A DNA stretch of 62,431 nt, filler included, from Dimargaris cristalligena (lineage: Eukaryota): the NCBI GenBank assembly GCA_003614675.1. It is 9 parts of 9 records of this genome, joined end to end, with 100 filler letters (N's around TTAATTAATTAA, not from the genome) between each part and the next. Parts side by side here need not be neighbours in the genome. Positions count along the whole stretch, not along the records: positions 1 to 6,900 come from ML003473.1; 8 more parts are not named here. One strand, written 5' to 3'. The notes under the pieces are model-generated. The model saw only the letters and a list, made by a program, of their open reading frames with translations. It had not been told where the DNA came from and did no database searches. Each line of letters starts with the position of its first letter. Positions within the stretch are counted from its first letter, which is position 1. Both the position numbers and the translations under genes were made by a program. This document shows positions 1-48,738 of the stretch, piece after piece.

Positions 1-475
1 GGAAGCCTAAATGAAAAGATAAGTGAGATAATAGGGAAAGGGAGAGAAGGTCCCATAATATTGGATGACCTAAACAGAGGGAAAGGGGGAGGAGTTCCCA
101 GACAATCATATGAGTCATCACAAAGGATAAGTGATACTCGGATTACCGATAAATTCAATGTGAAACAATAGAAGAAAGAAAAGAAAGGGAAAAAGGGGAA
201 AAGCTATTTTTAGCTGTACTTCGAACAGGGGCACAGTCGGGCCAGGGGCAGTGTGAATGCAGGGGTGCAGTCCGGCCAGGGGCAGGGGTGCAGCTTAGTC
301 AAGGGTATATACTATACTAATAGAAAAATACTATACTAATAAAAATAGAGTAAAAATGACTATACTCATCAGGGGCAGGGGCAGGGGCTCATTCACTCGT
401 CAGGGGCATACTTCCGATAAGTGTGAAAAATGGCTAAAAAATCAAAGTAGGTAAAAATGTGGTAAGTTCACCACA
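1..475 (-). mobile_element. LTR family A (5' part of LTR, cut by contig start)
   Basis: Minus strand begins TGTGGTGAACTTACCACA at 475. Near-identical to 48505-48638 and 13827-13881. Bases 1-33 match 13793-13825, allowing a ~600 bp TGT...ACA element to be reconstructed. Confidence 0.75.
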
Positions 476-949
476 CCAGTACCTATGAGACTACTTAATC
501 CACGTCCTTAAGCATCCCAAAATATGTTAAGTTGGGCCTCTCTATCATGGCATTAATGAAACCTGTGAAGGACATTAAGTCTATCTTGCAGATCCCTAAT
601 CCTGATATATTGAAAGTGGAGTTGTCCAGCTCTACATATACTTCATTAATCTAAAATCTATTCAACATTCATGATTATTGGCGTAGGCTGGATGTATTTA
701 TCATAAATTTATAATACTAAGGGCATTATAAGTAAAAGGAAATAGAGACCAAATTAAGAGAAAACTATAAGAGAAATTGTGAAGAAAATAGAAGAGGCGA
801 ATTTGGTTCCACTAACGAGTAGAGCTGGCTAAATAGTGGGATGCACTGCTGCATCTAGGACCGAGCCAGAGATGGAATTATAAGTAGAGTAACCATCAGG
901 TACGCAGAACCCCGAGTACATTTCATAGATATTCGAAGGTCGGTCCGGT

Positions 950-2452
950 TTACTGTTGGCTGGATAGTTTTGGGTGGGGTATACCTTTACGAAGTTTGAT
1001 GAGGTGCAGCTGGTTGTTGAGAATGGCATTATCCGACCAAGGTAAATTATCCACGCTGATTCCATTTGTTTTGAGTAATGCCTCGGCGGTCGGGCGGCGA
1101 ACTTGGATGGCCAGTTCAGGATTACCATCGGAATTACGACGTAGATACACAGTTCCATCACCTAAAATCATAGGTAGAGCAAAAGGATGTAAAATACGCT
1201 CCTGAGGAGCACGTGCACACTTTTCCTCGGCTGTTTTAAATCCCAAAACACCGGCATAGCGACAATTCCAGTTGATTTTTTTAGCTATGGCATCCTCTTG
1301 ATCGGCGGGGTAAGTGGCAAACTCTAAAAGTAACATGGCCGGGTAGTTGAGCATTGGATAATAACTATCACTCGCCATGCCGCCCAATAATTCATGCAAC
1401 TTGTCATGTTGACGGGTAACGATGAGGGCCGCACTGATACTGGCCACAATTTGTCTTAGGGAATGATTTTGGATTTCCATATACCCTATGCCCTCGTCGT
1501 CTCCGATGATTAATTTGAGTAGTTTGTCGTCTCGATACAAGTTTTTAACGGCCTGGACCAGTGTTTTATCTTGAAATAGTTTTTTGACACTCGAGAAAAT
1601 ACTCATTATATTATCCACGGACAGTCTCGGCAATAAATGTAGTACGGGAAAAAGAACCAGCTGTTGAGCATCACTCAACTGTCCATAGTCCAGGTACGCC
1701 CACTCCGCTTTAATAGCTTTCAGTTTGGAGGGATTTAAGTTAAATTGCCGGTACTGTAGTTCAGCCTCATAGTCTGCCTCACTCCGATACTCCCTCCTTT
1801 TTTTATAAAGCCCACCACTATGCATCCAACCGATAGCCATGAGTGTATCTACCGGTTGCATTGGAAAAATTGTTTGTAGAGTGTTCAAGGTGAGCGGGGT
1901 ATCATTCGAACTTATTTGATTGACCTTCGCCCACTTTCCAACAATGGATAGTACGAGTTTGGAAGAAAATAGCATAATAAACTTAGGATTAGATAAGGGG
2001 AATTGGTCAGTGGCTAATACGAGAGTGACTGTCTATAAAGTTAAATATACAGAGATACCGAACATTTGCCTGTAATTCAGCGGAGAATCATAGTTCCTGC
2101 GGAATCGGCATAGACAGTAGCTAGATGAGGAATAGCGGGCATAGTGAATCGTTTCAGATAATGCCCGTGAACTTACTTTTAAATGTGCCTGACTTTCTGG
2201 GTGTTGGTTGATAGTAGTGTACAAACGCCTATCAACCTGGGACATTTGCACCAGACCTTCAGCTGGCAAGTGGCCTAGAATTTTATGGATAAGTTCCGGG
2301 GGAGTGGTGTTAAGTGGGCTAATTTTAGCTGGACGATTGCTGTCTTTCCCATCATCACTAATCACTTCTTCTTCCACGGGCTTGGGGTGACCGGTCACAG
2401 CATGAGCCAAAGTCAGGCCTAACAGAGTGATGGGAACAAGGTACGACTTCAT
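950..2452 (-). CDS. Secreted protein with N-terminal F-box-like motif (two exons: ~2452-2050 and ~1981-950)
   Basis: MKSYLVPITLLGLTLAHAVTG signal peptide at ATG 2452, then LNTTPPELIHKILGHLPAEGLVQMSQVDRRLYTTI (F-box consensus). A ~70 nt intron with CACTGAC branch site and AAG acceptor joins it to the 341-aa ORF; the exact donor is uncertain. TATA-like box near 2651. Confidence 0.75.
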
Positions 2453-2910
2453 TTTCAACGAGCGGAAGAAAGGGGCGGTGTGAGCGAGAGATTGAAAGCA
2501 GCTATAATAGAATGGCCAATGGTGAATCATCCCAAATGGCAAAGTATAGTTGGGGGAGACAAGTGTAAACGGCGTGGGCAGAAAGTGGTTAAAATCCAGT
2601 GAGTGGGGTTTGGATAGGGTATATTGAGGCAAAGGGGAATACCGCGAGGTTATATATTCGAGGCGGAGGTTGAAGAGGAAGTGGTGATGGGTAGAGACAC
2701 ATATCCACAGAGCAAAATATATGAGCGACTCACCTGTGGTGATATAGTGACCTAACGCACCTTACACATATATGTGGCTCCATTGGAAATATGATATACC
2801 AATATGTTAATAGCCTTTGCATTTCCCCTGCAAGAGGAAAAAGAGGGAAGTGACATAAGCGTGGAACATGAATTATCCAGCTGACCTATTGGGCCGGGTA
2901 TACGACTTCA

Positions 2911-3056
2911 TTTAGGTGAAATGTGGACCAGCTGTATGAGGTTTTACAGGGTATATGCTTAGGGGAATAGGCAGGAGACTCACTTTGGACCAGTTATATT
3001 TACCTCATCCAACTATGTATTTTCCGTTATAGAGTCTGGTCAAACTCCTCCCCATA
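2911..3056 (+). mobile_element. MITE family D, diverged copy
   Basis: Similar along its length to 43778-43919 and 44478-44619; ends CCCATA. Confidence 0.65.
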
Positions 3057-4394
3057 TATTAATAAGTCGAGAGGAGTATTCCTGGAAGTCACGGCCCAGG
3101 TAAGATTATAGGCTATTCAACGAGGTCTCCCCCATTGGGAATTTATTTACCCAACACCTACCTATTTGACTACACCAATGAACTGGTGGCACAATCACTA
3201 CCATAGAACCAGCCGCTACCAAGAGGACCAGACCACATATCTTTCAAATGATTGGCAAGTGCACCAAAAATATGACAAAGAAAGGGACCAGTTAATGGAT
3301 GGGATGGTCCCTGGCCAAAGCTTCAAAGCCTCAATTCACCGTAGCCTTCTATAGTTACACATAAGTATCACTTGGTCACCTTTTCAAGCTAAAATATTAT
3401 ATATAATGTGGCTTGGTGTACAGAAAAAAATTCATCAATGCTATTTTTGGGGGAGAGGGGAGGATACCTTCCCTCGTTCTCCCAACCAACTCCCTAATAC
3501 ATTTCAGGGAGGCAACCAAGTGCCCTTATCTTATTTTCCCCCAGAACTAATAGCTTTAAGTGTGACCAATTCTCTCTGTTTGTCCTTTTGAGTATATTGG
3601 TGTACCGGGAATGGGCAATTCCCCAAATTCCCCAGGAGGGAATACAGTCCTTACCCTTGAAATATAGCTCTAATATTTATTATACCCCCCTCTCTATCTA
3701 TACACTATACCTACCATTTTGCATTGGCGCCTTGACTCCATTGACCACTGTATCTGGCCTAAGCCACTCAATATGGGTGGGCCCCAGATTTGAGCTAAGC
3801 TAGGCTCCCTCAACTCCCTGTTGACTGGAGAATTGGGCTTATTGATACCAACAGGCAGTTATGGTGCTTCATTGCACAGTAGTTTCATGTACTTGTGCCT
3901 TATGGTAGCTACATGGACAGAGTCCACTAATTGTACTAGTAGTCAAATTACCTAGGTAGAACTATCTACCTGGCCAGTAACCAAGTTAGTATAATGACCA
4001 GCTGGATGGGGAGATTTAACCCTTTTCGGTCTTATCAAAACTAAGTGCTCCCACTTCCCCCTAGTTCTGGGAGGTTCCTTCTTTTAGTATCCCTATATGA
4101 TAAACTACTCATACACTTTTCCCATTTGGCCCCAATTAGCCCATAATAAAGGAATGCAATGGCATTCAGTTGAAGGACGAATAGAAATGGCCACTTTCCC
4201 CTCTCTGAGGAGTTTTACCATCCTGTTCACAGGAGAGGACTTTATAGACTTGGGTTTAAAACCCATTGTGCTAATAGAGGTTGAAGTATACTAATTTGAT
4301 GTGAAAATGAGAATATAATCTTCCTCCTCTTTATATTTCTTCCTACTAACTAACCCAATTTAACCTCATTTATTTTAAAATAAAATATATTATC

Positions 4395-4977
4395 TGTTGG
4401 TCCTCCTAATCTAACTTAATCTGGACCCAATGATTGCCTTCCTATATTAGACCTTATTATACTATATTAACCCTCCTATAGTCACCCCCGGTACTATGGG
4501 TTCCTCATTTATCACCTAACCCTTCTTCTTTCTGACTCCAGCCCTTCACACTAATCACTTAACAGGCTGATCCAAAGACTCTTCCAGTTCCTATAAGAGT
4601 CTTCCTGATACGAAGCCACCTGGATACCTATTTACCTATACCTTAGTTTAGTAACACCTTCCCTTGGGGGCCTCCCTTTGGAGTTATCCCCACATATATA
4701 TAACCAGGCCCCTTTGGGACTAGTTAGATTCCTCAGCTTATTATTACCCCCTAGTTTACCCAATAAACTCTATATATACTCACCTCCTGTGTACTGACCA
4801 GTAAGTGTGCCTACTACATATCCCTTACATCAATCCAGTCACCTAAACCTTTATTAGTTAGTACTATACCCCATACCTGACGCTAGTAGCCCACTTGGCT
4901 AAGTCTAAGCCCCGCCTACCATTAGAAGCCTATCCTCAGGACTCTTGATGGACTAAGAGTGGTTAACCTGGGTGATA
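4395..4977. mobile_element. Solo LTR family B (~580 bp)
   Basis: Homologous to four other copies. Ends TGTTGG...GGTGATA (decayed CA). Flanks TTATC/CTATT fit a CTATC TSD altered by C>T changes. Confidence 0.8.
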
Positions 4978-5319
4978 CTATTTAGTCCAATCCTTATTAT
5001 TTGATATACTAATAATAATTTTATATACCTCATAATATATCTAATATTATTATTCATTTCCAATAGTTAGTATATATTCACATAATACATGGCCTTTAAA
5101 ACAAGTGTCACTCTTATTGAGGCTGAATGTAATGCTACACTAAAATAAACCTAATGGCCTTATATCTTTACCAACTGCTGTAGTGATAGCCTCTTTGGGA
5201 AAGAGTATCTGAGTACGAAATCTTACTCGCGGGGATCATTACTGTCAAGCTTGTAGGCGGGGACAAACCAGGTAGCTGGGTATCACTTGAGTAAAAATAC
5301 GAAAAATTTATCAGTTGCA

Positions 5320-5510
5320 CTGTATAGAAGGTAAGAAAGTGGATGGCGGGCGGTAGGTGCCTATAAGTGGTTAGTTTTACTGAATAGTGTAATCAGCATG
5401 GGGAATTTCAAATAGTTAATATGAAGGGGCATAGAATAACCGAATAAACTAGCGAAATTGGTCAGAAACAGGATAAAATAATAGACCCATCGGGATATAT
5501 TTTTTAACAA
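5320..5510 (+). repeat. Dispersed repeat family E, copy 1
   Basis: Colinear similarity to ~14945-15135 (ACTGTATA..AAGAAAGT..GGTGCCT..AATAGTGTA.TCAGCA..GGTCA..AATAGA.CCAT). Confidence 0.55.
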
Positions 5511-5638
5511 TATGGGGTAGGTTCAACCAAACTATATGGTGAAAAATTCATTGGATAGTGCAAATATTACTGGATAAAAATGAATGTCTCATAATTTTCA
5601 TTTAAACCCTTATGCAGCTAGACCAAATTTCAACCATA
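5511..5638 (-). mobile_element. MITE family D, inverted copy
   Basis: TATGGG...CCATA ends; reverse complement resembles 43778-43919. Confidence 0.65.
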
Positions 5639-5753
5639 TGGAATTTCATCATATTTAAATAATTAGAGGGTATCCACCAATGCACATCCACAAATATCGG
5701 TTTTTATTGTCAAGTCTTGCGATCAAATGTTCAAAGCCATCGCAAATGATGAA

Positions 5754-6900
5754 TTATGATCCGCGATGAATTTTCATATGAATAGGAACATATCTTTTCC
5801 GCGAAAATGTTTTTTGGCAGATCGGGCAAGCATATAGCTTCTCCCCGGTGTGTGTTAGCTTGTGCTCATTGAGGGATGTTTCCTGTGAAAAGGAGTTATT
5901 GCAATCGTTGCAGGTAAAAGGTTTCTCCTTGGTGTGGGTTCTGATGTGAGCAGTAAGGGTATTTTTCTGTGCAAATGATTTAGTGCAAAGCTGGCAGGCA
6001 TACGGCTTCTCCGCGGTATGTGTCCGGACATGCCCATTGAGAGTTCCAGTCCGCGCAAATGATTGCGGGCAATATGGACAGGTAAATGGCTTCTCTCCGG
6101 TGTGTTTTCGCATATGGTCCTTGAGATTGCTTTTGCGTGAAAATGTTTGGCTGCAATCACTGCAGCGAAAAGGCTTCTTGCCTGCATGGGTTTGAATGTG
6201 ACTCTTTAGCTGACTGGATGTTGAAAACGCTATTTGGCAGTTGTCGCAGGAAAAAGGCTTCTCCCCGGTGTGCGTTCGCATGTGGACATTGAGACCGCTT
6301 TGCTCAGTAAACGGTTTGTCGCACTCACTGCAACGATAAGGCTTCACCCCAGTGTGGCTTCGGATGTGTCTTTTTAGATCACTGGAATTTGTAAATGGTT
6401 TCTCACAATACTCGCAGCGATGAATTTTCTCACCAGTATGTAGTCGCGTATGCATCTCGAGGGTTTGGGGATGATAATACACCTTGTCGCAAATTTCACA
6501 GGGGTAACGCTTTGCTTCGATTAGGGATTCGGCACCTTTTCTGGGTCGTTTCGGGGCCGTGGTTGAGCTTTCGCATTCATCACTGGCACCTAGCTTCTTC
6601 TTGTTGGCCAATACTGATTGATTGTCATGACAAACGGGTTCCGCCGGTTCGGGCTGTTGATGAAGACGGCCGTCGGGATTTGATTCTACCTCACTACCTG
6701 TATTAATTGTATCGTTGATATCACCCTCTAGAAGGGGAAGGCTCCTCATTGGCATGGGTTGGTTGTTGAGATTAGTAGAGTCAAGGACAGCCTCTATTTG
6801 GTCGATACCCGTGTTTGTGTTGTCTGAACTGAGCGATAGGTCATCGGGATAGTTGATATAGTCGTCGAAGTTGAATTCGGGATCGTACTCTTCAGAGGCA
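5754..6900 (-). CDS. Poly-C2H2 zinc-finger protein with nine tandem fingers, 5'-truncated by contig end
   Basis: Nine CxxC-x12-HxxxH units with TGEKP-type linkers. The frame stays open from 6755 to the contig edge (ASEEYDPEFNFDDYINYPDD...). Basic NLS-like PKRPRK precedes the array. Confidence 0.95.
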
Positions 6901-7000
6901 NNNNNNNNNNNNNNNNNNNNNNNNNNNNNNNNNNNNNNNNNNNNTTAATTAATTAANNNNNNNNNNNNNNNNNNNNNNNNNNNNNNNNNNNNNNNNNNNN
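6901..7000. other. Artificial contig-joining linker (also 13882-13981, 20858-20957, 27817-27916, 34772-34871, 41712-41811, 48639-48738, 55543-55642)
   Basis: Identical N-TTAATTAATTAA-N 100-mers (stops in all six frames). Segment lengths fall monotonically: 6900, 6881, 6876, 6859, 6855, 6840, 6827, 6804. Confidence 0.98.
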
Positions 7001-9453: not shown

Positions 9454-11016
9454 TTATACATGGACCATTATGTCGCCGTTGGTCTTGAGGAATTTGTTAA
9501 AAACATCCTCCATGAGTAACTGAGACACTTCGTCCTTGGCGGGATCAAACATGGTCCAAGAGAACTGCTCACGTTCCACGAGGGTTCGCAGGTAAAGCAG
9601 GGTTTTGCCACTGATGTTCACCTCCCAAATCGACCCATCGGCAAAGTACCGCTCGTAGAAGCAATAGTAATCAATCGCTAGCTCGGAGGGCACCGTTTGA
9701 CTAGTCTGCTCGTCCAGATCGCTGGCGATAGTCTCGGGTAAGGGGGACACCCGATTGCCAGCGTGGAGGGATTCCATCGATTCAACGTCGTTGAGGGAAA
9801 CGGACTCGCCTTCCTTATCGGGGACCGTATTCTTGGTAACAAACCACCGGTTAAAAGGGGACTGCGGGGGATTGCTGTACGGGTCTACTTCCGTTTCGTC
9901 CCCTATGGAACTTCCCGGTTCGTCCGTCAAATCCCGAAGATGAGTCATTTTGATGGGTTTTTCCGAGTTCATAAACTCGACCGACTTGGCCTTGAGTCGC
10001 TGGTAATCAGACAAGAAGAAGGGTAACTCGGCGCAGAAGTTGTTCTCACAGAATTTACAGAAGAGAGACAGTAGTTCGGGGTCGTTCATCACCCGGAAGA
10101 AAGTGGCGGGCGAGTGGAGGGCCTGGTTGTTCGAGTAATGGTGCTCCCGTTGGGCCCGCAACCAGGGAATGAATACTGCGGAGAATTGAATCACCAATAC
10201 GCTGACAGCTGGAAAGAACACGGGGGTGATGGGGTAACTGATATCCTTGGGCGCAAGCATCAGGGCTAAATAAGGAATATCGAGCACAATACTACTAACG
10301 CATGTAATAATTAAATTATTCCGCATCTGATACGCATCCTTAATATTGCGAAGGCAATAGATTAGGTAGGGGAACACGATAAACCCATAGGTGACCGCAA
10401 TAACAATAAGGGGATAGCTTTCCCAGTCCAGGCCACACTCGGCCTTGTGGGCCATAAACGAGTACTCGTTCGATACGAATAGGGGAATGATCGCGAAGAT
10501 GATAATGGGCGACGAGACGATGAACATGTAAAGGATGAGCCGCCGGTCGTCGTTGAAGATACGGACCAGGCCGGGATGCTTCTCCCAAAAGGACACCGGC
10601 CCATCAGGATGTAGTAAGCGGCCAACCTTAGTGGAAGCGGATCGGGCCATGGCAATTAATCGTATGGACCGGGTCAGGATGGCGGTATGGACAAAGTAGA
10701 AGCCGAAATAGGAGCCTATATGGGAGAGGAAGCATGGGAACCCTTCCACACTGCGCAGGAAGTAGAGTGTACATGTTACCAGGGCGGCTATGCTCGTTAG
10801 GACGGTTAAGGGTACCGAACGGCGCTGGAGTTCGCGACTCGTGGAGCTCCGGTGGTAGAATAAAGCGGTCGTCGCGATGATAAAGACAGAGGCGACAATG
10901 GTCAGAGATATATAAATGTATAGTTTAAGGTGCGGTGGGTGACTCGAGTCCGTATCCTGTCGCCGCACCAGATCGAGGCTTGCGGCAAAAGCTGCCGTAT
11001 GGAGGAGGAACGGCAT
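9454..11016 (-). CDS. Seven-transmembrane receptor-like protein fused to a C-terminal RGS domain (GprK/AtRGS1-like architecture)
   Basis: About seven hydrophobic helices, then RGS segments FFRVMNDPELLSLFCKFCENNFCAE...FYERYFADGSIWEVNIS...FDPAKDEVSQLLMEDVFNKF split by an acidic insert. Intronless. Confidence 0.88.
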   Translation of the reverse strand: MPFLLHTAAFAASLDLVRRQDTDSSHPPHLKLYIYISLTIVASVFIIATTALFYHRSSTSRELQRRSVPLTVLTSIAALVTCTLYFLRSVEGFPCFLSHIGSYFGFYFVHTAILTRSIRLIAMARSASTKVGRLLHPDGPVSFWEKHPGLVRIFNDDRRLILYMFIVSSPIIIFAIIPLFVSNEYSFMAHKAECGLDWESYPLIVIAVTYGFIVFPYLIYCLRNIKDAYQMRNNLIITCVSSIVLDIPYLALMLAPKDISYPITPVFFPAVSVLVIQFSAVFIPWLRAQREHHYSNNQALHSPATFFRVMNDPELLSLFCKFCENNFCAELPFFLSDYQRLKAKSVEFMNSEKPIKMTHLRDLTDEPGSSIGDETEVDPYSNPPQSPFNRWFVTKNTVPDKEGESVSLNDVESMESLHAGNRVSPLPETIASDLDEQTSQTVPSELAIDYYCFYERYFADGSIWEVNISGKTLLYLRTLVEREQFSWTMFDPAKDEVSQLLMEDVFNKFLKTNGDIMVHV

Positions 11017-13661
11017 GGCCGGAGTGTATTTTTTTAAAACGCACCAGAGGGACCAAGATAGAGGGGAGGTGCCAGCTACACTGGTACTGTAAACAAAAGC
11101 AAAAATAGGAGGAAAAAAACAAGAGGGTGGGCCCCAGCCAGGTGAAAAAATACTGTCGTCGGTCAGATAAGTGTGTCAGATATCTAAAGTGGAACCCAAA
11201 GCGGCCAATGCAGCCCACCGTTAAAAAAAACACTGACTGGAAGTCGACGACGATGTGGGGTAGTGGTTTTAATATGGGCCCAACAAATACATGGATTGGT
11301 ATTAGAATGTAAAGACGCTACTCAGAACTATATAGAAGCGGCAAATGATTAGAAATATGGAGGCAATTTGAACCCAAGTATAATATGAGTATTTTAGTGT
11401 GGTATTTCAAAAGACAAAAATGTAAAGATATGTCGTGGAGGAAAAAGTAATATTATGTGATGTATAATGTGTTACGCCAAGAATAGTATTGCAATAGACG
11501 TGCATTGTAGGCCAATTTACAATATCAGGAGCTATTTAAATCAATACAAACATATAAGGTGTAAATAAGCAAATGCAATAACAAGGTAATGAAAAAACAG
11601 GAATATAATAAACTAGTAGGAGAAAAGTCGAATAGAGGGGTCCGAATCAAGGCCAATATATATAAGCATATATAAAAATAGGTGTTTTTCACCAGGAAGA
11701 TGAAGTTAAGTAGATCACACTCAACCACCAACCACCCGTGGTGTAAGACACTCTAAAATACCGATTTCAGTATAGGCGAGGATTTGCATTCCTATATATT
11801 AGTACTGCTGGGCCCCCTCCACCTTCATATTCGAACGGAAACGGTCGTATATTAGGAAACGGCTGAAGACGGGATCGCCCGGACACACCCTCCAGTATAC
11901 TAAGAAAATCAACACCAAGTTCCAAGCCCATGAGAACCAGCGGCCAACCTTCACACTCCCACCATCCCCCCCCCCCACATCAATTGAATTTACCGGTTTA
12001 GCCAATAAAAATGGAACTCAGAAATGCCGAGTCTATGGATGGAAAATGGAGCCCAGATTTGTTTCAAGCTGTATTCCGATACTTTGACCTCACGGAATCA
12101 GCTCTAGGGTTTATAAACCTGCGGAATGAGAGAGATAGGGAGCGTGGGTATGTGAAAACAATACCTACTAGCCGATACCCTTAATCATCTTTCTCTTGGG
12201 GCTGCTACACCTATACCACTCAGCATCATGAATCTAACCTTTCGGGGGAAAGAGGACATAGTTGGTAATGGCGGAAATAACATACGAAAGAGAGAGTGAG
12301 TGGGTGGTGGATGGATGTACATGTGCCGCCAGCCGCCTATAGAATCAGAGCGTTAAAACCAGGATAATGTCTGGCGTAGATCGACATGGCCATCCAAACA
12401 AACGTTCCCCTCACCTTGCCTTCCAGCAGGTACGAAAAAAAAGGGGGGTGAAAGAATACTGCACGAAAGTATAGTTGCCCACACTGCTACCTCGTTGGTT
12501 ATCATCTATAACTTTAGCCTATGGTATGGGAATGCCATTATTGCAACTTGCCTGGGTCGTACAGCCGTACGAAAGATATCTGTATTGGTTTAGTACAATC
12601 TTGATAACCCTAGTATACTTCGAAGAGGTTTGCCAGCTTATGTCCGGCTCTTCACTGCCCTTCAGCTTAACATCAATGAATAGAGAATAAGTTTCTATTT
12701 AATCATTTCTGTCCAAAATTCACTTTGCTCTAAATACTACTGATGATCGGTATTAGTTCTTGTACGGGTTCTGATATAGTGAAAGCGATACACATAGAGC
12801 AGAGGCAATTCTTGGGAGGTATTGGTCATGTACTCCCCAATGTTGTTTATTGAGGGGAATTCCAATTTAATCAAACGTCCTGACAATCCAATCGAGTCGA
12901 GGAAATCCTCAATGAGGGTACATTACCTGGAACAGGGACGAAAACCGCCCAAATTAGAGGTGACCAAGATAATGTACCAATACAATATAGTTGTGTTTAC
13001 AAATAATGAATATACCCATTGAAGCTCTGTTGATGATATAGTCCAACAATAGTCATGTATCCTCAGTCACTAGAATTGCAACAACTGACCACAATATAGT
13101 AAAATATTTGAAGACAAAATAAGGCAATACTAAGCTGGACCAAGTTAATCCAGCCACTGTTTTTACACAGGAAGATTTGGGGGGCATGAGTGCCTTGGTT
13201 ACTCCATTTACCACCAAAATTGGTGTTATTATTATTGTATTTAAAATACTACTTGGAACAGTGATAATATATTGAGGTCATGAATAGGGAGTTACTTGGT
13301 GGTAAAAGCTGGTCTGTCCATTGAAAATTAATAATTTTGATATATTGACACAGTCTCCAGGGTCACTACCCATAGGGGGACAGACAAATAGGGACATTGC
13401 TCAGCTACACCCCACTCAGTTACATGCCTGTTCATTTAGTTGATCTGCAAAGGCCAGCCTACTGGTTTGCCAACTTCCTGTTCAGGACCATCCACATAAG
13501 GGAGGTTAAACCAAGGCAACTATTTCCAAAGGTAGAGTTGGGCATGGTGCCATATAAGTCTGGAAAATAATATTAGATACACACCACTTACATCCTTTAC
13601 TCACAAAAACAAGGGAAAATCACAAGTATTCAAACATATGGTGGTTGAGAGTGATGGGCAT

Positions 13662-13881: not shown

Positions 13882-14292
13882 NNNNNNNNNNNNNNNNNNN
13901 NNNNNNNNNNNNNNNNNNNNNNNNNTTAATTAATTAANNNNNNNNNNNNNNNNNNNNNNNNNNNNNNNNNNNNNNNNNNNNGGTAAAGGTCCCGAAACCA
14001 CAAAATAGCACCCCTGTCGGTATATCTCGCAGACACCACATGAGAGATCCATATCTTCGTTAGCCTCATGGACAGTACCCGCCAGTACTATGACTTAGTA
14101 ATAAGGGTGACTATAATGAGCGCCCTCTCGTCTATATATAAGGTCTGGTCCTCCCACCTTTCTTTCAACCATCAATTAGACCCATCAACCCTCCATCCCA
14201 CCGACCTTTCTTCGCCCTTCCTTCTTCACGGCCACCCCCCCCCCCTTTACTCCACCCTCTCCTCCCGTTCAGCTCAGATCATTTTGCCGACC

Positions 14293-17599: not shown

Positions 17600-20500
17600 A
17601 TGTATACCCACTCACTCCCTGCCCGATTACCCCACCACTCCTCCACAGATTTCGGCTTTGATTTTACAGACGAGGAATACGACGAACCCGTGGTCGCCTC
17701 TTCAGATAATGCCGGGAATAGCGACGAGCAACCCTCAGACGATTCTCCCGTTGATACTCGGAGTATAACAGTCGCCTCCGACGCCACCCCTTCCCCCACT
17801 TCACTCACCTCCCTGAGTAGTGAAGTCCTAGTTAATTCCATTGAGGATGCTTCTCCCAAAGGTAGGCCTTTATCAGTCCGCTCTCCTGATGGCATGGATA
17901 TGGATCTGCCTTTGCAATTGTGTTAGTACCCCCTTAACTATGGCTGTCTAGCGCTGGCTACAATTTGGCAGGGCTAAATTTACTAATCAACCACTACCTC
18001 GACTTATCTACCGACCCCCCCTTCTGTATCCCTCTTGAAATCCCAGTTTTGGAAGCGGTATTGCCCAACCAATTTGACGAGGGCGACTTGACTCCTATCG
18101 AACGGCTGTGTATTCGTTCGCAGAGCTCCCTTCCTTTCTTACGGTAAGTGACATCCCTTTTTCTTTGGTATTTCCACTGAATGTCTGTTAATCGGCCCCT
18201 TTATATGGCCTTTTAGAAAAGCCCCGGCTGGGCCGTCGAAGGGGGGGTGGTGTTTGGTAGCTGATTGTCAAAAGCTTGCCCAGTACCAAAACGGTGAGAC
18301 TTCCGTATCCTTGGGCACTGTTTTTCCTAACCCGTTCAGCCGCCTTCTCGTATTCACTGATTGCCCTCGCTTCTTTGTTTTGAACCATCAACCACGGCAG
18401 TGTATGGGCCGCTCGCGAAATCAAAAATGTCCTCCACTCTTCCCCAGTCGCCGATATTCTCACCACCATATTCCCGGTGGCCTTCCAGCTCAGTATGGAC
18501 AAAGGTATGCGTCTCGAGGAAAGGCTGTTGCTATTAGGCATGGTTGGCATACTTGCCTCCCAAATGGCCATTTTCGTTCTTTCGATTGGCCTCTATTCGC
18601 TGGACTGCATCTATATTTCCCAATTAGGGTTTTCAAATAGCTGCTAACATGTATTGGTTTATTCTGGTCTATTTTTTAAAATACCAAATATTATCCGTTA
18701 GATCGATTCGTCCGGGAAAATTTTAGCTGTGATTTATTGCCTCTATTCCTGTACTATTATAAGGTAATATCGTTAGTCGAATTCTCCTTAGGAGGATCAT
18801 GTCAGAGTGCTTTCACTCAGTCTAATGGGCCGTGTTATTAACCCTATAGCTATCTGTACGCGTCACCCAAGTTTGAAACCCAGTGCCTTCATTTGTTAGC
18901 AACTTGCCCAATCCGTCGTTTTTTTTCTTATACGTTTTCCATGTTTTATTATTATTATTATTATTATTGCAAATCCATGGGGCGATTCCTTCCTCAGCAC
19001 GGACACGACCGGAAAACATGCCCACCTGTATCGCCCCTAACCGAAAACACTGCCTTATCCCAAGCACTAGCGGAGTCTGATGATGCGTCCCCCACCAATG
19101 GGTCCCTCGAAAACCCCATTACACATTCCCTTTTCCACGACTGGCTTGAAACCATGCTCCTGGATCCCAGCGTCATCGTTGTCAACGGGGTGCAGGCTGC
19201 ACTCGTAGAACTGGGCCACACTATGGAGTTTGACCTGTATCACACGGAAGTGATTCACCACACTATCCTAAGGTTGGTCAAGTCGGTGATAAAGTCCCGG
19301 CCACCCTCCATTGACATACTGACCGATAATATTCTTTCTGCTGCATTCCTCAACTCCAATTCGGAGTTGGAAGACAAGGCCCTTCGCCGAAAATTAATGG
19401 CCCTTAAACTCATACGCGCCCTGGTGCAGAAATTCGGGTCAGGGCTCAAACCGGCCGTCTTTGTCCCGACCATCGAAAAGACCGCCCAGGATCCCTCGTT
19501 TGAGGTTCGGCGTGACACCGCCTTTACGCTGGGTGAATTGTCCTATGCCTTATCCTACGACTTGGTATTGGAAGGCATATTCCCAATCTTCCAAAATCTC
19601 ATTCAAGACACCAATTGGCAGGTCCGACATGCGGCCGCTCATATTGCATTGCCTAAATTGGCAACCGTCCTGACGGGCTCCCAATGGGCGTCCCCCCAAA
19701 TCACGGTTGGGCCGGGCCGGGCTCTTCATACAGGGCCCAACGGCCCCAGCCATCCGGGTAATGCCTCACTCCCGGCCGGCCAGTCCCCACACTTACCCCC
19801 GCCTGCCCCACCCGTAGCGGCTAAGGTCTGGGCCCAGATTATTGAGCGCCTTTTGGGCAGTCGGGAAGTCAGTTACCCGGTCCAGACCTCTGTATTTGAA
19901 GTCATTGGCCAGTTGATGGTGGCCTTCCAGCACATGGACAAGGTCAAAGAAATTCTGGTTCGCTACTACCTCAGTGTGGTTGAAAGTGCTGTGGACCAGG
20001 ATGTGGTGACCACACCCGAGCTCATTTTCCAATGCGCTTACAACTTTCCGGCCATGCTTTTTATCATGGGTGTCAGCCGTTGGGACGAACTCGCGGACGC
20101 CTACTTGGCCTTAACTAAATTCGACCATTTTGAAGTGCGCAAGACCCTGGCCCACTCCCTACATGAAGTGGCCAAACTATTGGGTCCGGAATTTGGGGAA
20201 CAGTACCACGAAAAAGTATTTGGCTACTTTTTGGTCGATTTGGACGAAATTCAATTGGCTGTAGTGGCTCACCTCACAGATTTTCTCGATTGTCTCTATC
20301 CCGTTGCGCGCGAGCGTTGCCTCCCCCAGATTCTCGAGGTGTTCCAGCACGAAGGTAACAACTGGCGGGCCCGGGAGACCATGGCCCAGCAACTAGCCCC
20401 ACTGTGTCGACTCTACCCTGAACGCACTGTTGTTCGTCATCTACTCCCGTTGGCCGTTCATTGGGCCAAGGATCAAGTTGCAGCCGTCCGGGCAGCCGCC

Positions 20501-20857
20501 GCCAGTGCCTTTCCGGTCATCTTTGACATGACCAAGGAGGACCCGGGGCTTCAAGTACAGTTCTTTGAAAGTATCATTCAATTCCGGGCCGCCACTACCT
20601 TCCGGGCCCGCCTATTCTTTATCCAAATCTGCGAGGCACTTCTGACCCAGCAGGTGGACGCTACAGATTTCGAGCAGTTCTTTTTACCAAGTTTGTTAGC
20701 CCTAGCAAACGACAAGGTATCCAATGTACGGATTGCGGTGGCCCGGACGCTCAAGCGCTTACTTCCTGCCCAAACGGCGATGTCGGCAGAACCAACGGAG
20801 GATACAAAATCGAGGTCGTCGTCAACTCAGTCCTCACCCCGATCATCGACTAATTCG
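17600..20857 (+). CDS. PPP4R1: HEAT-repeat protein phosphatase 4 regulatory subunit 1-like, 3'-truncated (exons ~17600-17921, 18048-18143, 18401-18503, 18702-18763, 18998-20857)
   Basis: GT-AG introns join in frame. HEAT motifs DPSFEVRR, DTNWQVRH, DQVAAVR, DKVSNVR; PP4R1-like CAYNFPAMLF, VRKTLAHSLHEVA, NWRARE. Start codon uncertain. Confidence 0.8.
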
Positions 20858-22683
20858 NNNNNNNNNNNNNNNNNNNNNNNNNNNNNNNNNNNNNNNNNNN
20901 NTTAATTAATTAANNNNNNNNNNNNNNNNNNNNNNNNNNNNNNNNNNNNNNNNNNNNCCTGGAGAAGCCACCCTGCCCTTTTGATATATTTTTGTTGTTC
21001 ATTTTAGTGGCCTGACACCACCACACTGTGACACCGTCGCCGGAGTTTGGACGATCCACGATGGCGGAGCTTTAACAGAACGGTCGAAGGTAAAATAATA
21101 TAAGATAACTAGTAAAAAGTGAAATCTTGACCTCCGGTTGAGGTCTTCGATTACTGCTGGGGTAAAACTGCTGGGTGAAGTTAAAAGTAGATATTTATTC
21201 TGAATAATAAAAACTTATCTCGGTGATAACTTGCCGTTTTAAGGGCCGACTTGGTGCTACATATTTATAGCAACGTGTAGATGTGAACATAAACTCATAC
21301 TAAAACTTTCGGACATCGTCCGCAGATGGACTAACCGCCATAAAACTGCGAAGGGAAAAACTGGCGGGGTCTTCGAGTTCAACGAATAGCGGAAAAGGAA
21401 GGAAAGAAAAATAACGGAAATTGGAAGACAAAAGATGTCTTCGGATCTTCCAACGTTCTCGTGTGAACAGTATATATATATATGTACGTGGAAGTGTTGA
21501 GTTCCACTCGTAGGTCTCGGAGTGCTCAATCCATGGAAGTGGAGTTATTCACTTTTACCGTCCAGGAAGCGGAAAGGAACTCGTTTTCGGACGAGGATTA
21601 ACCAACATAGGTCTTCCGAATACTCATGCAAGGGTGTAACTGTAGCATGCGCAAGGATCACATGACGAAGGTCGCGACTAGTTTGTCTTGTGGAGAGGAT
21701 AACCCATCCCAACCCATGTCAGTACATATGGCGCTATTCTATAGGCAATACATCTATTGTAGTATAAAGCTATTCAGAATAAACGTCAACCCGACAAGCT
21801 TAAGCAATGCCACAGTGCCTAATGATAAAGCAGCTTGCACGGCCATTGCTGTTAAAAAAATGACATTGTGTCCCATATGGCTGCCGATCCCCCCTAACCT
21901 ATGCGGTTCATTCTAGCCCATTCACAAAATAGCCAAGTGGGCGAACCACATTATTACTGTAGTTAATCTAGCCTCTAAAATCCCCAGAAGGCAAGTTTAA
22001 TTCGCACGACTTATTGGCGACCCTGCGAAGCAGTAGTTGTTTGGGAGCGCCGCCTTAATTTTTTTAATAGAGATCCGCCTACACCCGACCCCCATAGCCT
22101 CGGCTTTATATTTCCTATTTGGATCACCCCCCTATACCACTCAAATATATAAAAATATATTCCTGAAAACCCCAACGCAACTGACCAATAGGCTGCCCAT
22201 GTCACGCATCTAACACCGTCGCTATTGTGCTTCAGCACATCACAAGGAAAAGGAATCATTAATTTTATCCCAGAAACTAGGTGCATTAAGGATATGCGAG
22301 CCTTCTCCCCGCCCCTTCCATAAACCCTGAAGAAGTACATCAAACATAGTGGCAATTCCCAATCCAGAGAGCTCTACGTATAGAAGAGAAATACAAATAA
22401 ATAGATTTATATATTATAATAAATGGGGGAGATGGGGGGGGGGGATCAGGTGCACAGATTAGATACAGTCAATGTCCTAACGGGAAAGTGTAAGGCAAAG
22501 GTAGGCGCGGAATAGGGAAAACTAGGGACGAAGGTGTCAAATAGACAGGGTAGGCAGAAACGGAGTGGATTAAACGTATTGAGTTGCTAATCCGAGGTAT
22601 ATGGAAGAAACTCAAGCGGCAGGTTACAAAAAGAGGGAAAAAATAATATAGCCAAGGTGGTTTATATTATTAATGTTTTTTTT

Positions 22684-24304: not shown

Positions 24305-25314
24305 GGTGGAGGTGGTGGTGGACGGGTGTAGGGAGGGGGAGGTCCAAATAAAGGAGCCGGTGGATATGGATGTATGTGGTCTAATGATCGTGAATTGGGG
24401 CTGTGGGAAGGCTGGCGGTTGAATGAGCGACTTCTAGGATAGAGGGGGCTGTGGTTGATTGTAAAACGAGGGACACGAACGCCGGCGGATTGGACTTTTG
24501 AATTAGGCGAGCGTTAAATGTAGTACTAGTCTTGATGGCGTACGGGCTTGAAGGTGCTGGGCTGGGCGGGCTAATTATATAAAAATAAGATGTGTCTTTA
24601 TATATAAGGACCAACTGAAGGGATTAAATACTACGTATGCCAAAGTGAGCAGCGGAGTCAGGGAACTAACGGCATAGACAATAGATAATAAATGAAGGAA
24701 AGGAAACAAGGGAAAGAGTAGAAATGTCACGAAAGCAGAGCTGGATGAGCTGAGCCAGTCACTTATATGAGCGCAGTGCATACGATACACGCAAGAGAGT
24801 GGCGGACACTTTGCTCTTTAAACCCTGACCTACCACCACTATAGAGACCAAAGAGTGTTGGGCTGGCTGTGAATAATGGAGAGTGGTGGTTACCAAGCTC
24901 TGAAACCAACCTAATATCAATCCAGCCCACATCCCCAAAATTTATTTCCCAAACGAGCCCTCTCGTGGATTTTGGGTGGTGCGATGTATATACTGTTTGG
25001 GAAATTATTCCGTATTCACATACACAATGGCGGGAAAAGTGGACAGCCGTCACTACAATTGGTGGACGTCGAGTCCCTTTAACTCTAGTAATAATATTCG
25101 CCTACCCCTCCCAATGCCACCCGCCTCCACTATAGATAGAATATGTATATTACCGTTTGACTGCTGTCTTCATTTTTTAAAAATAATCTTTTGCTCCATT
25201 AACCCCTTCCCCTAATTGCTCCTCTCGACTACACGGAGTCTTTTCCTTAAACACCACATCGCCTGCTGCCCCACACACGAAAACAGCGCCGCAGTTAACT
25301 AGGCATATTTCCGA

Positions 25315-27546
25315 ATGTCCTCCAGCGATGAGAACCAGACCCCACCCCGTCGGGCGCAGCCCAAACCCAAACGGCGGCCACGCCCCACCACCACTTCACG
25401 GTCCGCCACGATGGCCCTTGGCCCTTCGGGACCCGCACCCACCGATAATGGCACCACCACCCCCCTAGGCGCAGCTACCCCGCACTCCCGTGGCAACATC
25501 CCCCACGACGACTCATTTTTCCGACGAGACACCACCTCAACCCTGGCCCTCATCGCCCAGTCCATCGAGTCGCCCTTACCAGGCCCTTCAGCTGATCTCG
25601 ATACCCCCAGTAAACGCAAGTCCGACGACGCTCTGTCGTCGCCAAATTGCGGCCCCGTGGCTCGTAAACGAGTCGAAAGGCCAGCGCGGGACGAGCTATC
25701 CCTTTCCCCGCCCAGCAGTCCTAGCCGGGGTGCAGCTCCTCGCCGGACCGGTGTGGTGAGGGTGAGTGACGATGACGACGACCAGCGGAGTGTATCCCTA
25801 ACCCCGCCCCCGGATTATCTGGATGTGAACGACTCGGACCTAAACTGGCCTGGCCTTTCCAACCATAATCATAACCGCGACATTGACCACACCATTCTAC
25901 TAGTGTCGAGTCCGTCTCCCGGCTCCTCGCCGTCCTTAGCACCTCGCTATTCACCCGAGTCGAGCGTCCTGCGGGGGCTGGATCCCGAATTAGAGGCAAT
26001 TGCTACTCAAATGCGTAGCCAACTACCACCCCCATCGGCCATGCCATTGCAAGTGGGTCACGAAGGCGAGTTGACTGTCATTGACGACGACTTGGCTATT
26101 GTTCCCTCCCCCCGCTTGAGTGGCGGTAGCTTCCGCCGTACCGGTAGTAGCCACAATGCCCTCTTAGGGACGACTAGTCCCACCCTAGATTACCAGCACG
26201 GCCTACAAAGTCCCCCACCCCTTTCGTCGCTACCCCGGAAAATGTCCCGAGCCGATTCTACTCCCCTAATATCCACTTTTCACTGCAACCTTTCACCAGG
26301 GACCCCCCTCCAAATCACCATCATTCCCCGCATTAGTTTCCAACCGGTGCCCGATCCGGAACAGGAACCTGTCTATTTGCCCATTTATGTCCCCGTCTCC
26401 TACCGCGTCCAACGAATTGATTCGTTTGAAGGTATATTTACCGAATTTTGTACCCGCTACCACCTTCCGCGCTCCGAAGTAGTAATGACCTTTCGCGATA
26501 CCCCCCTGTTTGACCGGTCCTCACCGGCTAGTCTCGATTGGCAAGATGAAGTAGAAATATGTAAGTGAAGTGCAAATAGAGACGCTGTGCGGTTGGATTA
26601 GGGTGTGATGGAACTGTTCAAACGTTTACCCTTCTTGATTTGAATCGGCTAGCAGCCGGACTTATAATAGTACGGCGGTGCTTTAGTGCGAGCTGAAGCA
26701 TTCACCTTTGGTGGTATAAGTCACTTCTCGAAACACAACCACAATTAGCCAGGTCAATTAATAACCACATTTTCGTTTATTCACATCGGCTATTTTATTT
26801 TTTATGTTTTGACTTTTACATTATGCCAGTCTGCTACTTCCGACACACCTTCGAGGAAAACAAGCGCCGTCGCGAATACCAAAGCGAGAAACGTCAGCAC
26901 CGGCTGGAGGAACAGGCCCGGCTAGATGTACTGTATATCCAAAAAAAGAAACAGCGGGAAGAACTACAGATGGCTGCAGCCACTTCGCAGGCGGGGGTGG
27001 TAGAGTCTTCCGCCAATGTCGAACCTGACGAGGATGATGAAAACGAGGATTATGTCAAGATTAAACTACGCGGTAAAGACAGAGTTGACGTGAAGCTCAA
27101 GGCCAAACATGTAAGTATAGCAATTTGATTGAAGAGTACTGGCTCCGTCCTATGAACTGAGTACGGCTCAGAAATTTTACAAGAGAATCCCCACACTAAG
27201 CGGGTTGTATACGGATCAAAGGTTTATTCTATGAGCAGCATATTGTCAGCATTATCAAACCAATACTTACCGTACCGTGTCTCCTCCCCCCCTATATACA
27301 TTGTATACTTCCCACTTTGACCCATCATTTATTACGGGTACTTCAAATTTCGTTTCGGGATGCTGTTTCTTATTGTAGACGACAACCGTTAAAGCCCTAA
27401 TCGACCAATATGTCAAGAGGCAGGATATCAACTCCCGCATCAATACTGTCAAACTCGAGTTCGAAGGGGATATTTTAGACCCCGACATGACCGTCGAAGA
27501 ACTGGACCTCGAAGACGGTGATATGCTCACGGTTATCATCAAGTAG
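25315..27546 (+). CDS. Esc2/Rad60/NIP45-family protein with two C-terminal SUMO-like domains (exons 25315-26560, 26830-27110, 27379-27546)
   Basis: Disordered S/P-rich N-terminus; SLD1 (DSFEGIFTEFC...VVMTFRDTPLF...SPASL); SLD2 (VKIKLRGKD...TTVKALIDQY...LEFEGDILDPDMTVEELDLEDGDML). Transcribed divergently from BUR6. Confidence 0.85.
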
Positions 27547-29208
27547 CCCGACATGTCCAGTTTCCCGGCCTTTCACTGCTCTGGATGTAGATAACCTCCT
27601 TCCTTTTATAAACTTGACCTCTTTCTTTTCACCGGATGCATTCGATGCTTTGATGCGTCTTCATTTGAGAATTGGGGCGAGCTTAGTGTTACATATTCAG
27701 TTATGAGACGTATATGTTGGGCCGGTGATTTGAGGAACCCCTCTCCCGGGACTAAGGATGGGGCTGAGCCCCGCGCTATGCTCGGGATTGGATGGGCCAC
27801 CGGACGTCGGGTTTGGNNNNNNNNNNNNNNNNNNNNNNNNNNNNNNNNNNNNNNNNNNNNTTAATTAATTAANNNNNNNNNNNNNNNNNNNNNNNNNNNN
27901 NNNNNNNNNNNNNNNNGGCATTAGCAATGGCCAAATCAATAATCAGATACCTGTCTTTTATAATATCCTGGACTATTAAATGGCGTCGATAGGTCGGAGG
28001 GCTTACCAATGTTCGCAAGGTTACGTGGCCGTGGCACTCGCTATTGCCGCATTTGGACAGGCCGAGAACGGCAAACTAGCCTGACCGTGTCGCAGTTGGC
28101 GCAACTCAATTTCCAAAAAATGAGTTGATCCATATGCCCAAACATAAAAGGCATGGGCATCCCGGCCACATCGGGTGCACCGATGCTATTCATTTAAGAG
28201 GTACAATTGGGTCAACCAAATTCAGCTGTTTAGTATCTACAAGTGCTTCCCTTTCTACCTATTGAAATCTATGAAGCAGTTCCACACGTTCGCAGCGTAT
28301 GAGTTATTCTATAAGGCGCCAGATTGCAGGCCTTGTCGCTAAGTAGTTTCAGCAAAGCGTTAGAGATACTGTCCCATATAGTAACCAATAGTTGTTGGAT
28401 GGAAACCCCGGGTGGTAGGAACGTTTGGTAGAATTGGTTAGAGAAGGTTGGTGGCTAAAATTTATTTTAACATTCAGTGTATGCCACATTACATTTAACA
28501 TAAAAAATCACATAACAATCAATCCAAACTATATATTCTAACTTTGAGGGAGACCAACCCGCACTTTAGTTGGGCGAAGATGGATACTTGATGAATTCGG
28601 CTCTTAGGATCGTGCGAAAATCGAATAAAAAGGCGACCCTACAGTATTTATTAGGTTGTAGGAAGAAGGGGTAAGAAATGTAATCGCCAGGACAAAGTAG
28701 ATAAAACCAATCATTAGAGAGAAAAGAGAGCGAGTGGAGAACATCTGTCACAGAGCGGTAATTGGAGAATAATAATCAGACAGTCGAAACTGTAAAGTTG
28801 GAGGGGTGTGTAAGAAATAATGTTTGGATTGATACTGACGTCGCGCCAATGGAGTCCCATCCCGTGGAATTACAGAGGTAGCTGCACAGTAAATGCATTG
28901 ACAAACTCCAGAAAAGGTCAGAATATAATATATGGCTAGGAAAGTATCGGGAAATTTAAAGCCACAAATCATTTTAGAACATAACATAATCCAAAATCCA
29001 CGATATAGTTAAAGGGATTTGAGCAGTCGGAATAGTTTAGTGTCAATAGGACAGTACACTTTCCCTAAGCGAACATCAACAATAAAATGAAAATATCGGG
29101 ACATACGCTAACACATGCACCGGTGCACGCAGAATAAAAGGGATGCAGTTGTATCTTCAATACAGTAAGATAAGGTAGCCGAGATATGGCTTGGAATACC
29201 CAATATCT

Positions 29209-34771: not shown

Positions 34772-34871
34772 NNNNNNNNNNNNNNNNNNNNNNNNNNNNN
34801 NNNNNNNNNNNNNNNTTAATTAATTAANNNNNNNNNNNNNNNNNNNNNNNNNNNNNNNNNNNNNNNNNNNN

Positions 34872-37036: not shown

Positions 37037-37741
37037 ATGCATCCCTCATACACCGCACTTAACCTTCCGACATATGCGGGAAAATTCCCGACAATACGCG
37101 GTCGTATATAGGAAGTGCTTTTGCCTAAAGGTGCCTGTATAGTGAAACGCGGAACACCAGAAGAGGTCTACAACATGCTTTTGGTCCAGCGCTTTACCGA
37201 CATCCCCGTCCCCACTGTTCATGGAATCCAAGGGGAGTATATTATTATGGAGAAGATGTCCGGAGCCCCGCTGGACTGGAAAACCACACCATTTCGAAGT
37301 AAAATCGTCGACCAGCTGAGTGCATTTGTAGCACAACTACATTCTCTTTACGGCATTCTACCAGGCAATAGTAGTCACGAATGTATAATCCACAGGCGTC
37401 GAACTACCAAAGGTACTTGTTGGAATCTAAATGATTTACACTGCTTATATGTCTCCCGGATGACATCTGACACTGTCCGTGATCATGCGTTGAAGACCCT
37501 CACAAAGGACTATACATTGTATTATACCCACGGAGATATTGCACCGCATAACATAATGGTCGATAATAATGGTACCATTACTGCACTTCTAGATTGGGAG
37601 GACACCAGCTTCTATCCCGAGTATTGGGAATATGTAAGATCGACACGATACACCGAATGGTTAGCCGAGGTTGGCTTATTCATGAAACCTTACTACAATG
37701 AGCATTATATTTGCATATACCTGGATATGATTTCATTATGA
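37037..37741 (+). pseudogene. APH/choline-kinase-like phosphotransferase with one in-frame stop (TAG 37109-37111)
   Basis: TDIPVPTVH, YIIMEKMSG, HGDIAPHNIMV, LLDWEDTSFYPEYWEY. The paralogue has CAG at the TAG position. Confidence 0.8.
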
Positions 37742-38238
37742 CCAATATCGTGCCTAATAATCAATAGGGTTAAAGCCGATTTATCTTTGCGAAATAAGTA
37801 CCACCATCACCCAGTACCATCAATGGGGCACGAGATTTCCACCGCTGAAGGATCGTCTTCATTCAGCTATTCCCGCCCCTTGATTCATCTATTCCTTATT
37901 ACACCTTCATTATTATCACTCTTTATATCCTATCATCTAGTAGTGTGTTTCAGCATGTTCTGCGCTGCTTTCACGCATTTATTTTCAGTCTGATCGGTTA
38001 TATAAAGCCGAGCGAATTCCGATAGGTATTCTTTAGCTAATCAGCGATTATCCAATCCCTCCTTTTACTAGTAGCCTCGTACTACCAATACCTGCCTCAT
38101 TTATTATCTATAAATCGCCCCTTCGCATCAGCATTTTGTCTTTTATCTTTTGAGACTCACTCTAGACGCAGACCTTCTAGTCGTTACTAGGAATTCTACC
38201 CACGACTATCAACTATCCACGCATACCCAACATCTAAC

Positions 38239-48638: not shown

Positions 48639-48738
48639 NNNNNNNNNNNNNNNNNNNNNNNNNNNNNNNNNNNNNNNNNNNNTTAATTAATTAANNNNNN
48701 NNNNNNNNNNNNNNNNNNNNNNNNNNNNNNNNNNNNNN

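Follow-up and report, generated by a model that had tools for sequence, protein, structure and literature searches.

F-box proteins are normally cytosolic, and a gene that appears to set an F-box behind a secretory leader raises the question of where its product works and on which proteins. A candidate gene of this kind is located on the minus strand at positions 950–2452 of the window, by which we mean the whole analyzed stretch of 62,431 nucleotides from the haustorial mycoparasite Dimargaris cristalligena (assembly GCA_003614675.1; nine parts joined by filler). The initial annotation of this locus, made from the sequence alone, had proposed that it encodes an effector delivered into a host cell, where it would hijack the Skp1–cullin–F-box (SCF) ubiquitin ligase. 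We found that the predicted protein belongs to a diversified, expanded and taxonomically narrow family, which, among the named database proteins, is known only from D. cristalligena. The order of its predicted parts, a leader, an F-box-like segment and a C-terminal domain, is repeated in at least nine genes, including the one in the window. Our best reading of this architecture, which is possible and which we propose tentatively, is a lineage-specific family of secreted F-box effectors analogous to the SSGP-71 proteins of the Hessian fly.

Structure of the gene

The initial annotation had joined two open reading frames (ORFs) into one gene, and this model is supported by the open frames and by matches of a family profile in both predicted exons. 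The gene extends on the minus strand from an ATG at 2452 to a stop codon at 952–950, and its two exons would encode a protein of 452 amino acids, or of 435 amino acids if an alternative splice acceptor is used. Exon 1 (2452–2177) contains 92 codons from the ATG and closes at the donor AAA/GTAAGT (2176–2171), whereas exon 2 (2032–953) contributes 360 codons, or 343 codons if it starts at 1981, with family homology from 1918 on. All 452 codons are free of internal stops. A hidden Markov model (HMM) built from 19 family proteins, with the protein of the window excluded, had only two matches in the window: exon 2 was matched with E 1.7e-100 and exon 1 with E 2.8e-16. In exon 1, the matched region begins at Met (2452) and ends, as does the family homology, at the donor; the predicted two-exon model is therefore backed by family homology. 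An upstream in-frame ATG at 2528–2530, with no stop codon before 2452, would add 26 residues ahead of the leader if it were used; the homology with the family starts at 2452.

Two acceptors are compatible with the reading frame. The predicted phase 0 intron at 2033–2176 combines the GTAAGT donor with a TATAG acceptor (AG at 2034/2033); it is 144 nt long and gives the 452-aa product. The alternative in-frame AG at 1983/1982 gives a predicted intron of 195 nt (1982–2176) and the 435-aa product. We lean toward the 195-nt intron, because the branch-like CTRAY motifs CTGAC (2010) and CTAAT (1992) precede only the 1983/1982 acceptor, because global alignments to paralogues slightly favor this acceptor in all three cases tested (scores of 610 vs 593, 145 vs 135 and 157 vs 145), and because the 17 codons that differ between the two products fall within residues 1–20 of the exon-2 structural model, where the predicted local distance difference test score (pLDDT) is below 50. 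The order of parts in the protein is identical with either acceptor. Moreover, the leader and the F-box-like segment share one uninterrupted ORF (exon 1), thus their fusion is independent of splicing.

Family members and taxonomic distribution

A HMMER scan of 1.84 billion representative proteins identified 21 representatives at E up to 0.001, of which 13 were retained at 1e-10 and 5 at 1e-30. The C-terminal domain accordingly defines a family of 21 clusters at 50% identity, including the cluster of the window protein. Apart from the latter, all 20 representatives that could be named originate from D. cristalligena, from two assemblies of this species. The databases also hold the proteomes of Dispira, Tieghemiomyces, D. 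xerosporica and D. verticillata, yet none of these supplied a representative at E up to 0.001, at a level of 50%-identity clusters beneath which closer orthologues could hide.

The existence of a family elsewhere in the genome agrees with the initial annotation, but the remnant that it had placed at 56020–56535 is not supported. The tblastn search gave no match in this interval, and the two ORFs found there score −0.7 and −1.2 bits against the family HMM (E 34 and 50), ranking 21 and 40 among the 788 ORFs of a scoring run with all filters switched off. A weak tblastn match at 57380–57276 (E 0.86), was rejected, as the family HMM assigns it an E-value of 64.

Of the 20 clusters, 11 include one or more gene models that open with the same leader, consisting of M-K/R-x-Y, a hydrophobic core, and G/S followed by R/H-P-x-P. 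The remaining family models are short and start within the C-terminal domain, with a 5′ exon probably missing. Only models without the leader and the F-box are available for about half of the clusters, and several models are truncated or flagged as 'LOW QUALITY PROTEIN'. It is common for the two annotations of D. cristalligena to place the 5′ end of a given gene differently (for example 317 vs 406, 201 vs 297 and 378 vs 464 aa). A word-based protein search with exon 2 returned only a 200-aa fragment of the window's own protein and one relative with 83% identity (P0005, the closest one), a hypothetical protein of D. cristalligena that is annotated solely as a 218-aa C-terminal piece. The same type of search with the family alignment listed at least three proteins and contributed nothing further. 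Because many public models lack the 5′ exon, secretome surveys would miss this family.

N-terminal leader and the adjacent motif

The first 21 residues of the predicted protein (2390–2452, minus strand) form a signal-peptide-like leader with Lys2, an 11-residue hydrophobic core (mean Kyte–Doolittle hydropathy of 2.21) and small residues at positions 18 and 21, which correspond to positions −3 and −1 of a predicted cleavage site. The window protein has no second hydrophobic segment, its maximum 19-residue hydropathy being 1.36. By heuristic rules (a positive n-region, a hydrophobic h-region of 7–15 residues and a polar c-region with small residues at −3/−1), the pattern that the initial annotation had described as a cleavable-looking signal peptide is present both in the window protein and in all 11 paralogue N-termini examined. 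All 12 N-termini possess a net positive n-region, a core hydropathy of 1.8–2.55 and a −3/−1 site at residue 21, with the lone exception of P0019, in which the site is at residue 20.

The predicted cleavage site is directly followed by [R/H]-P in 10 of the 12 N-termini, and in 8 of these a second proline occurs two residues further on. The resulting [R/H]-P-x-P motif (residues 22–25, 2378–2389) reads HPKP in the window protein and RPQP in most paralogues, as judged from the alignments. Its variants are HPKP, RPQP, HPHP, RPKP and RPYP, each amounting to two X-Pro dipeptides, and the motif might serve in processing or uptake.

The leader is also the best conserved region of the family, with a mean pairwise identity of 47%, as compared with 17% for the linker, 22% for the F-box-like segment and 23–28% for the C-terminal domain (calculated from the 10 full-length members among 12 rows, leaving out P0024 and P0034, in which most of the protein is missing). 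Such conservation ahead of a diverging remainder of the protein speaks for a functional leader.

The motif is followed by an acidic, proline-containing linker (residues 26–47, 2312–2377), the length of which varies among paralogues. The 27 residues at 22–48 of the window protein include 6 acidic residues, 4 basic residues and 4 prolines. The equivalent part of the structural model of the paralogue P0006 (residues 21–69) has pLDDT values below 50 and is predicted to be disordered.

F-box-like segment

Residues 48–88 of the predicted protein (2189–2311) constitute the F-box-like segment, which includes a P-x-E start and a Pfam match at residues 51–82 (2207–2302). The two best Pfam matches of exon 1 are both to F-box families, PF12937 (F-box-like; E 6e-4, 20.0 bits with a gathering cut-off of 24.3) and PF00646 (F-box; E 0.009, 16.3 bits with a cut-off of 20.5). 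The F-box consensus noted in the initial annotation is thus echoed by the best profile matches, but neither of them reaches its cut-off in the window copy. The PF00646 cut-off is passed by the paralogue P0006/P0026 (25.0 and 24.9 bits). Six of the nine genes that possess the segment match the F-box clan in identical alignment columns with E-values of 1 or less, and one of the nine has a match above the cut-off. In UniProt, members of 6 of the 20 clusters are labeled 'F-box domain-containing protein'.

For comparison we used (L)P-x-E-[LI] followed by the hydrophobic pattern of helices 1 and 2, which we take to be the F-box consensus. All nine sequences have the Pro and the Glu of the P-x-E start, the hydrophobic positions are kept, and the window copy reads P-P-E-L. 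A 50-column profile of the segment was compared with PDB and retrieved six sequences at E up to 10, of which four are in the F-box register with E-values of 0.29–0.54 each: 1ldk_E (Skp2-like), 5ibk_B (FBXW7), 1fs1_A and 12dl_NA, the last having an F-box-like N-terminus as judged by eye. The profile of the whole protein family also retrieved 5ibk_B (E 0.45). In the AlphaFold model of the paralogue P0006, with a mean pLDDT of 75 and a predicted template modeling score (pTM) of 0.71, three short helices are located at residues 75–84, 87–94 and 98–106, in a block with pLDDT of 75–79. Taken together, the profile matches and the model are consistent with an F-box identity of the segment, and this evidence is weak.

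C-terminal domain

The family-defining C-terminal domain (953–1918, minus strand) is predicted to be mostly helical with a small β-hairpin near its end, and the family HMM covers residues 39–360 of exon 2. The initial annotation had described a helical domain of about 340 aa belonging to no recognized family, and this description holds: the 360 residues of exon 2 match no Pfam or NCBIfam family, the NCBIfam scan of P0002, P0003 and P0006 gave no match, and an Atlas search with exon 2 gave no usable match. The predicted structure of exon 2 is confident (pLDDT 82.7, pTM 0.84) and shows an all-helical body followed by the β-hairpin and two helices.

Structure comparison did not point to a solved relative. 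Foldseek found nothing in PDB at E up to 0.001, the best E-values being 0.11 (P0006 model) and 0.30 (exon-2 model), with TM-scores of at most 0.22. A wide VIA-align comparison with 48,161 chains gave best Z-scores of 5.2 and 5.5 for the two models, all of them for generic helical repeats and below the helical background of the tool. Pfam scans of the window protein and of 32 family models gave no match to a leucine-rich-repeat (LRR) family with an E-value of 1 or less. A confident model without a clear solved relative suggests that the domain may be a new substrate-recognition module.

A chromodomain was also considered for the C-terminal 60 residues. HP1 and CBX5 are matched there only at E 0.9–0.95, and the position of the chromodomain strand is aligned to a predicted helix (H313–322 in the exon-2 model and H401–410 in the P0006 model); the lead was dropped because of this difference in secondary structure and of the E-value of about 0.9.

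The mature protein has only two cysteines, C257 and C272 in exon-2 numbering (1217–1264). They are present in 14 and 13 of the 20 alignment rows, respectively, and both are absent from a divergent subgroup; a disulfide between them is possible, judging by this distribution. The extreme C-terminus of the window protein (953–980) and those of many paralogues have a similar tail, P-x-P-x(3-4)-[SNP]-Q-[EQ], for instance SSQQ, PSQE or PNQE, which lies in a region of low model confidence.

Comparison with known F-box effectors

The nearest functional precedent for the Dimargaris family is, by analogy, the SSGP-71 family of the Hessian fly (Mayetiola destructor), in which the F-box is reported to bind wheat Skp1-like proteins (PMC7330099, PMC4617103) and the proteins are described as also bearing a signal peptide (PMC7330099). 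Both families are large, diversified and lineage-specific, occur in a eukaryotic parasite, and combine an N-terminal secretion signal, an F-box and a variable, target-binding C-terminal domain, all of them predicted parts in the Dimargaris proteins. In addition, the SSGP-71 genes have a conserved leader and a divergent mature part. The C-terminal domain of SSGP-71 consists of leucine-rich repeats, whereas that of the Dimargaris family is an orphan helical domain with no LRR match; the SSGP-71 proteins pass from an insect to a plant, whereas the Dimargaris proteins would pass from a fungus to a fungus. Sequence homology between the two is seen at most in the F-box, and Skp1 binding, reported for SSGP-71, would be a prediction for the Dimargaris family. 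Because it has no LRR domain, the Dimargaris family is not a member of the SSGP-71 or GALA-type F-box-LRR effectors, and it may work similarly to them.

Bacterial effectors, to which the initial annotation had compared the locus, are useful as an analogy, but they are not the nearest precedent. The VirF protein of Agrobacterium and AnkB of Legionella exemplify a pathogen-encoded F-box that joins the SCF complex of the host. The F-box protein RipG7 (GALA) of Ralstonia is likewise reported to be recruited to host SCF (PMC4617103). Bacterial F-box effectors reach the host through type III or type IV secretion, carry LRR or ankyrin C-terminal domains, and are unrelated in sequence to the Dimargaris family. 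Among fungi, the protein NLS_30765 of Rhizophagus clarus with a PF12937 F-box-like domain has been put forward as a predicted effector candidate, in a proposal that is purely computational (PMC4746824). It is described as a single candidate of 542 aa from a plant symbiont rather than as an expanded family, and has no known relation to the C-terminal domain of the Dimargaris proteins.

The family also resembles the canonical cytosolic F-box adaptors of fungal SCF complexes, with which it shares the P-x-E-[LI] start, the hydrophobic pattern and a three-helix segment of about 40 residues. However, the canonical adaptors have no signal peptide, are conserved across fungi, and contain WD40, LRR or other known domains, whereas the Dimargaris family has a leader, is restricted to one species and possesses an orphan domain.

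Proposed role and alternative explanations

To our knowledge, almost nothing is known about the molecular control of fungal hosts by biotrophic haustorial mycoparasites (Zoopagomycota). An expanded, fast-diverging and signal-bearing family with a putative ubiquitin-ligase adaptor motif is a concrete candidate for such control. The Dimargaritales are described as parasites of fungi that attack by means of an appressorium and a haustorium, with hosts in Mucoromycota and Ascomycota (PMC9866270). If the family comprises secreted F-box effectors, its cleavable N-terminal signal peptide, suggested by the sequence rules and by conservation, would direct the proteins into the secretory pathway, and the biology of the organism suggests that they would be released at the haustorium formed inside host hyphae. 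They would then enter the host cytoplasm, a purely conjectural step. There the F-box-like three-helix segment, as its weak homology would allow, might dock onto host Skp1 and join the host SCF ubiquitin ligase, and the C-terminal domain, which is strongly variable among paralogues, might select host proteins for ubiquitination.

A more far-reaching version of this proposal, which we consider somewhat doubtful, is that D. cristalligena possesses a species-restricted arsenal of at least 20 secreted F-box adaptors, delivered through the haustorium and exploiting host Skp1/SCF to degrade different host proteins, each by means of an unprecedented helical recognition domain, with the conserved leader and [R/H]-P-x-P motif serving as an export, processing or uptake tag. 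If true, this would be the first case of fungus-against-fungus ubiquitin-ligase mimicry. Skp1 is highly conserved among fungi, therefore both Skp1 binding and target capture could be tested in yeast or Mucor.

Several points weigh against the secreted F-box effector interpretation. The leader was called by our own sequence-rule heuristics (charge, hydropathy and the −3/−1 site). The window copy scores under the gathering cut-offs of both Pfam F-box families, three of the nine genes with the segment give no F-box match, and all F-box matches in PDB are non-significant when taken singly, thus the F-box call for the window copy is marginal and comes from combined weak signals. Finally, the full architecture depends on gene predictions, many public family models being devoid of the 5′ region. 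The mycoparasite F-box effector of the initial annotation therefore stands in part: the architecture is found in at least nine genes of a haustorial mycoparasite, but the F-box is sub-threshold and the supposed remnant is unsupported.

The same observations can be arranged differently if the proteins are secreted and have nothing to do with the SCF complex. In this case, which seems to us rather unlikely, they would act outside the host cytoplasm, at the parasite wall, at the haustorial interface or in the medium, and the F-box-like helices would be a structural cap that does not bind Skp1. The sub-threshold F-box scores in eight of the nine genes with the segment are in line with such a role, and so is the absence of the canonical Trp of helix 3 from the alignment, at the position where we take it to be. 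The cysteine pair, kept or lost together, would suit an oxidizing compartment, and the Pfam scans revealed no known substrate-binding module (LRR, WD40) in the family. On the other hand, the only identity indicated for this segment by Pfam, by the names in UniProt and by the PDB profile is an F-box, and P-x-E is invariant in nine of nine sequences. A combination of few cysteines with a long disordered acidic linker is commoner in effectors acting within host cells than in apoplastic proteins, and the mature protein, with its two cysteines and such a linker, fits the former better.

A second possibility, which is distinctly unlikely, is that the leader is not cleaved and anchors an endogenous F-box protein in the membrane of the endoplasmic reticulum or in the mitochondrial outer membrane, with the F-box and the C-terminal domain exposed to the cytosol of the parasite and working with its own SCF complex. 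This would place the protein at the usual site of F-box action, and Tyr4–Gly21 is indeed an 18-residue, moderately hydrophobic stretch with basic flanks (K/R at position 2 and R/H at position 22). However, its strongly hydrophobic core comprises only about 11–13 residues, contains Pro and is followed by a polar region with small residues, an arrangement that is classical for cleaved signals. The flank after this stretch is net acidic in the window protein (6 acidic vs 4 basic residues), so the positive-inside rule favors a lumenal location of the C-terminal side, and a species-restricted family with 20–45% identity would be unusual for housekeeping ligase adaptors.

It is highly improbable that the gene model is an artefact, with exons 1 and 2 not joined in the mRNA, or that this copy is decaying as an unexpressed pseudogene of the family. 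Such a reading could draw on the second acceptor, which is as open as the first, on the annotation of the 83% relative as a C-terminal fragment only, and on the several family models that are truncated or of low quality. Against it, each exon keeps an open frame and family homology precisely as far as canonical splice signals, 452 codons carry no internal stop, at least nine genes have their parts in this order, and the exon-2 model is confident (pTM 0.84).

The family of putative secreted F-box effectors has apparently not been described in print. Our literature search found no work joining Dimargaris with F-box, and the papers that combine F-box, mycoparasite, haustorium and effector deal with other matters, judging by their titles and abstracts. 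None of the terms F-box, effector, secreted or ubiquitin occurs in the main text of PMC6784888, the genome paper of D. cristalligena; supplementary tables of the genome papers may list these proteins.

Other features of the window

The gene adjoins a gene-poor stretch, since the region of about 3.3 kb upstream of it (2460–5750) contains no ORF of at least 110 aa on either strand. The repeat scan of positions 1–6900 detected a single short GC-rich direct repeat at 226–285, composed of two 26-nt copies with 88% identity that are 34 nt apart, and no repeats in 2460–5750. Beyond this stretch, Pfam matches point to a multi-finger C2H2 protein (5757–6899, minus strand), a HEAT-repeat protein (18842–20857, plus strand), a fragment of an APH/kinase-like phosphotransferase (37112–37738, plus strand) and a DUF6540 protein (38191–38787, plus strand). 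The long ORFs at 25303–26565, 48739–50956, 51678–52694 and 57558–59192 match no Pfam family.

A 573-aa ORF at 9457–11175 (minus strand) combines a seven-transmembrane (7TM) region that weakly resembles 7tm_3 with a C-terminal RGS domain. Its named relatives, with 48–54% identity, were found in Dispira, Tieghemiomyces and three species of Dimargaris, often in several copies per species. This gene was considered as a yardstick of divergence and rejected, as the 100% match turned out to be the protein of the window itself, while the named relatives, whether paralogues or orthologues, come from several genera. Lastly, the filler between the joined parts appears as eight pairs of 44-base N runs with a spacing of about 6,950 bases, at 6901–7000, 13882–13981, 20858–20957, 27817–27916, 34772–34871, 41712–41811, 48639–48738 and 55543–55642.

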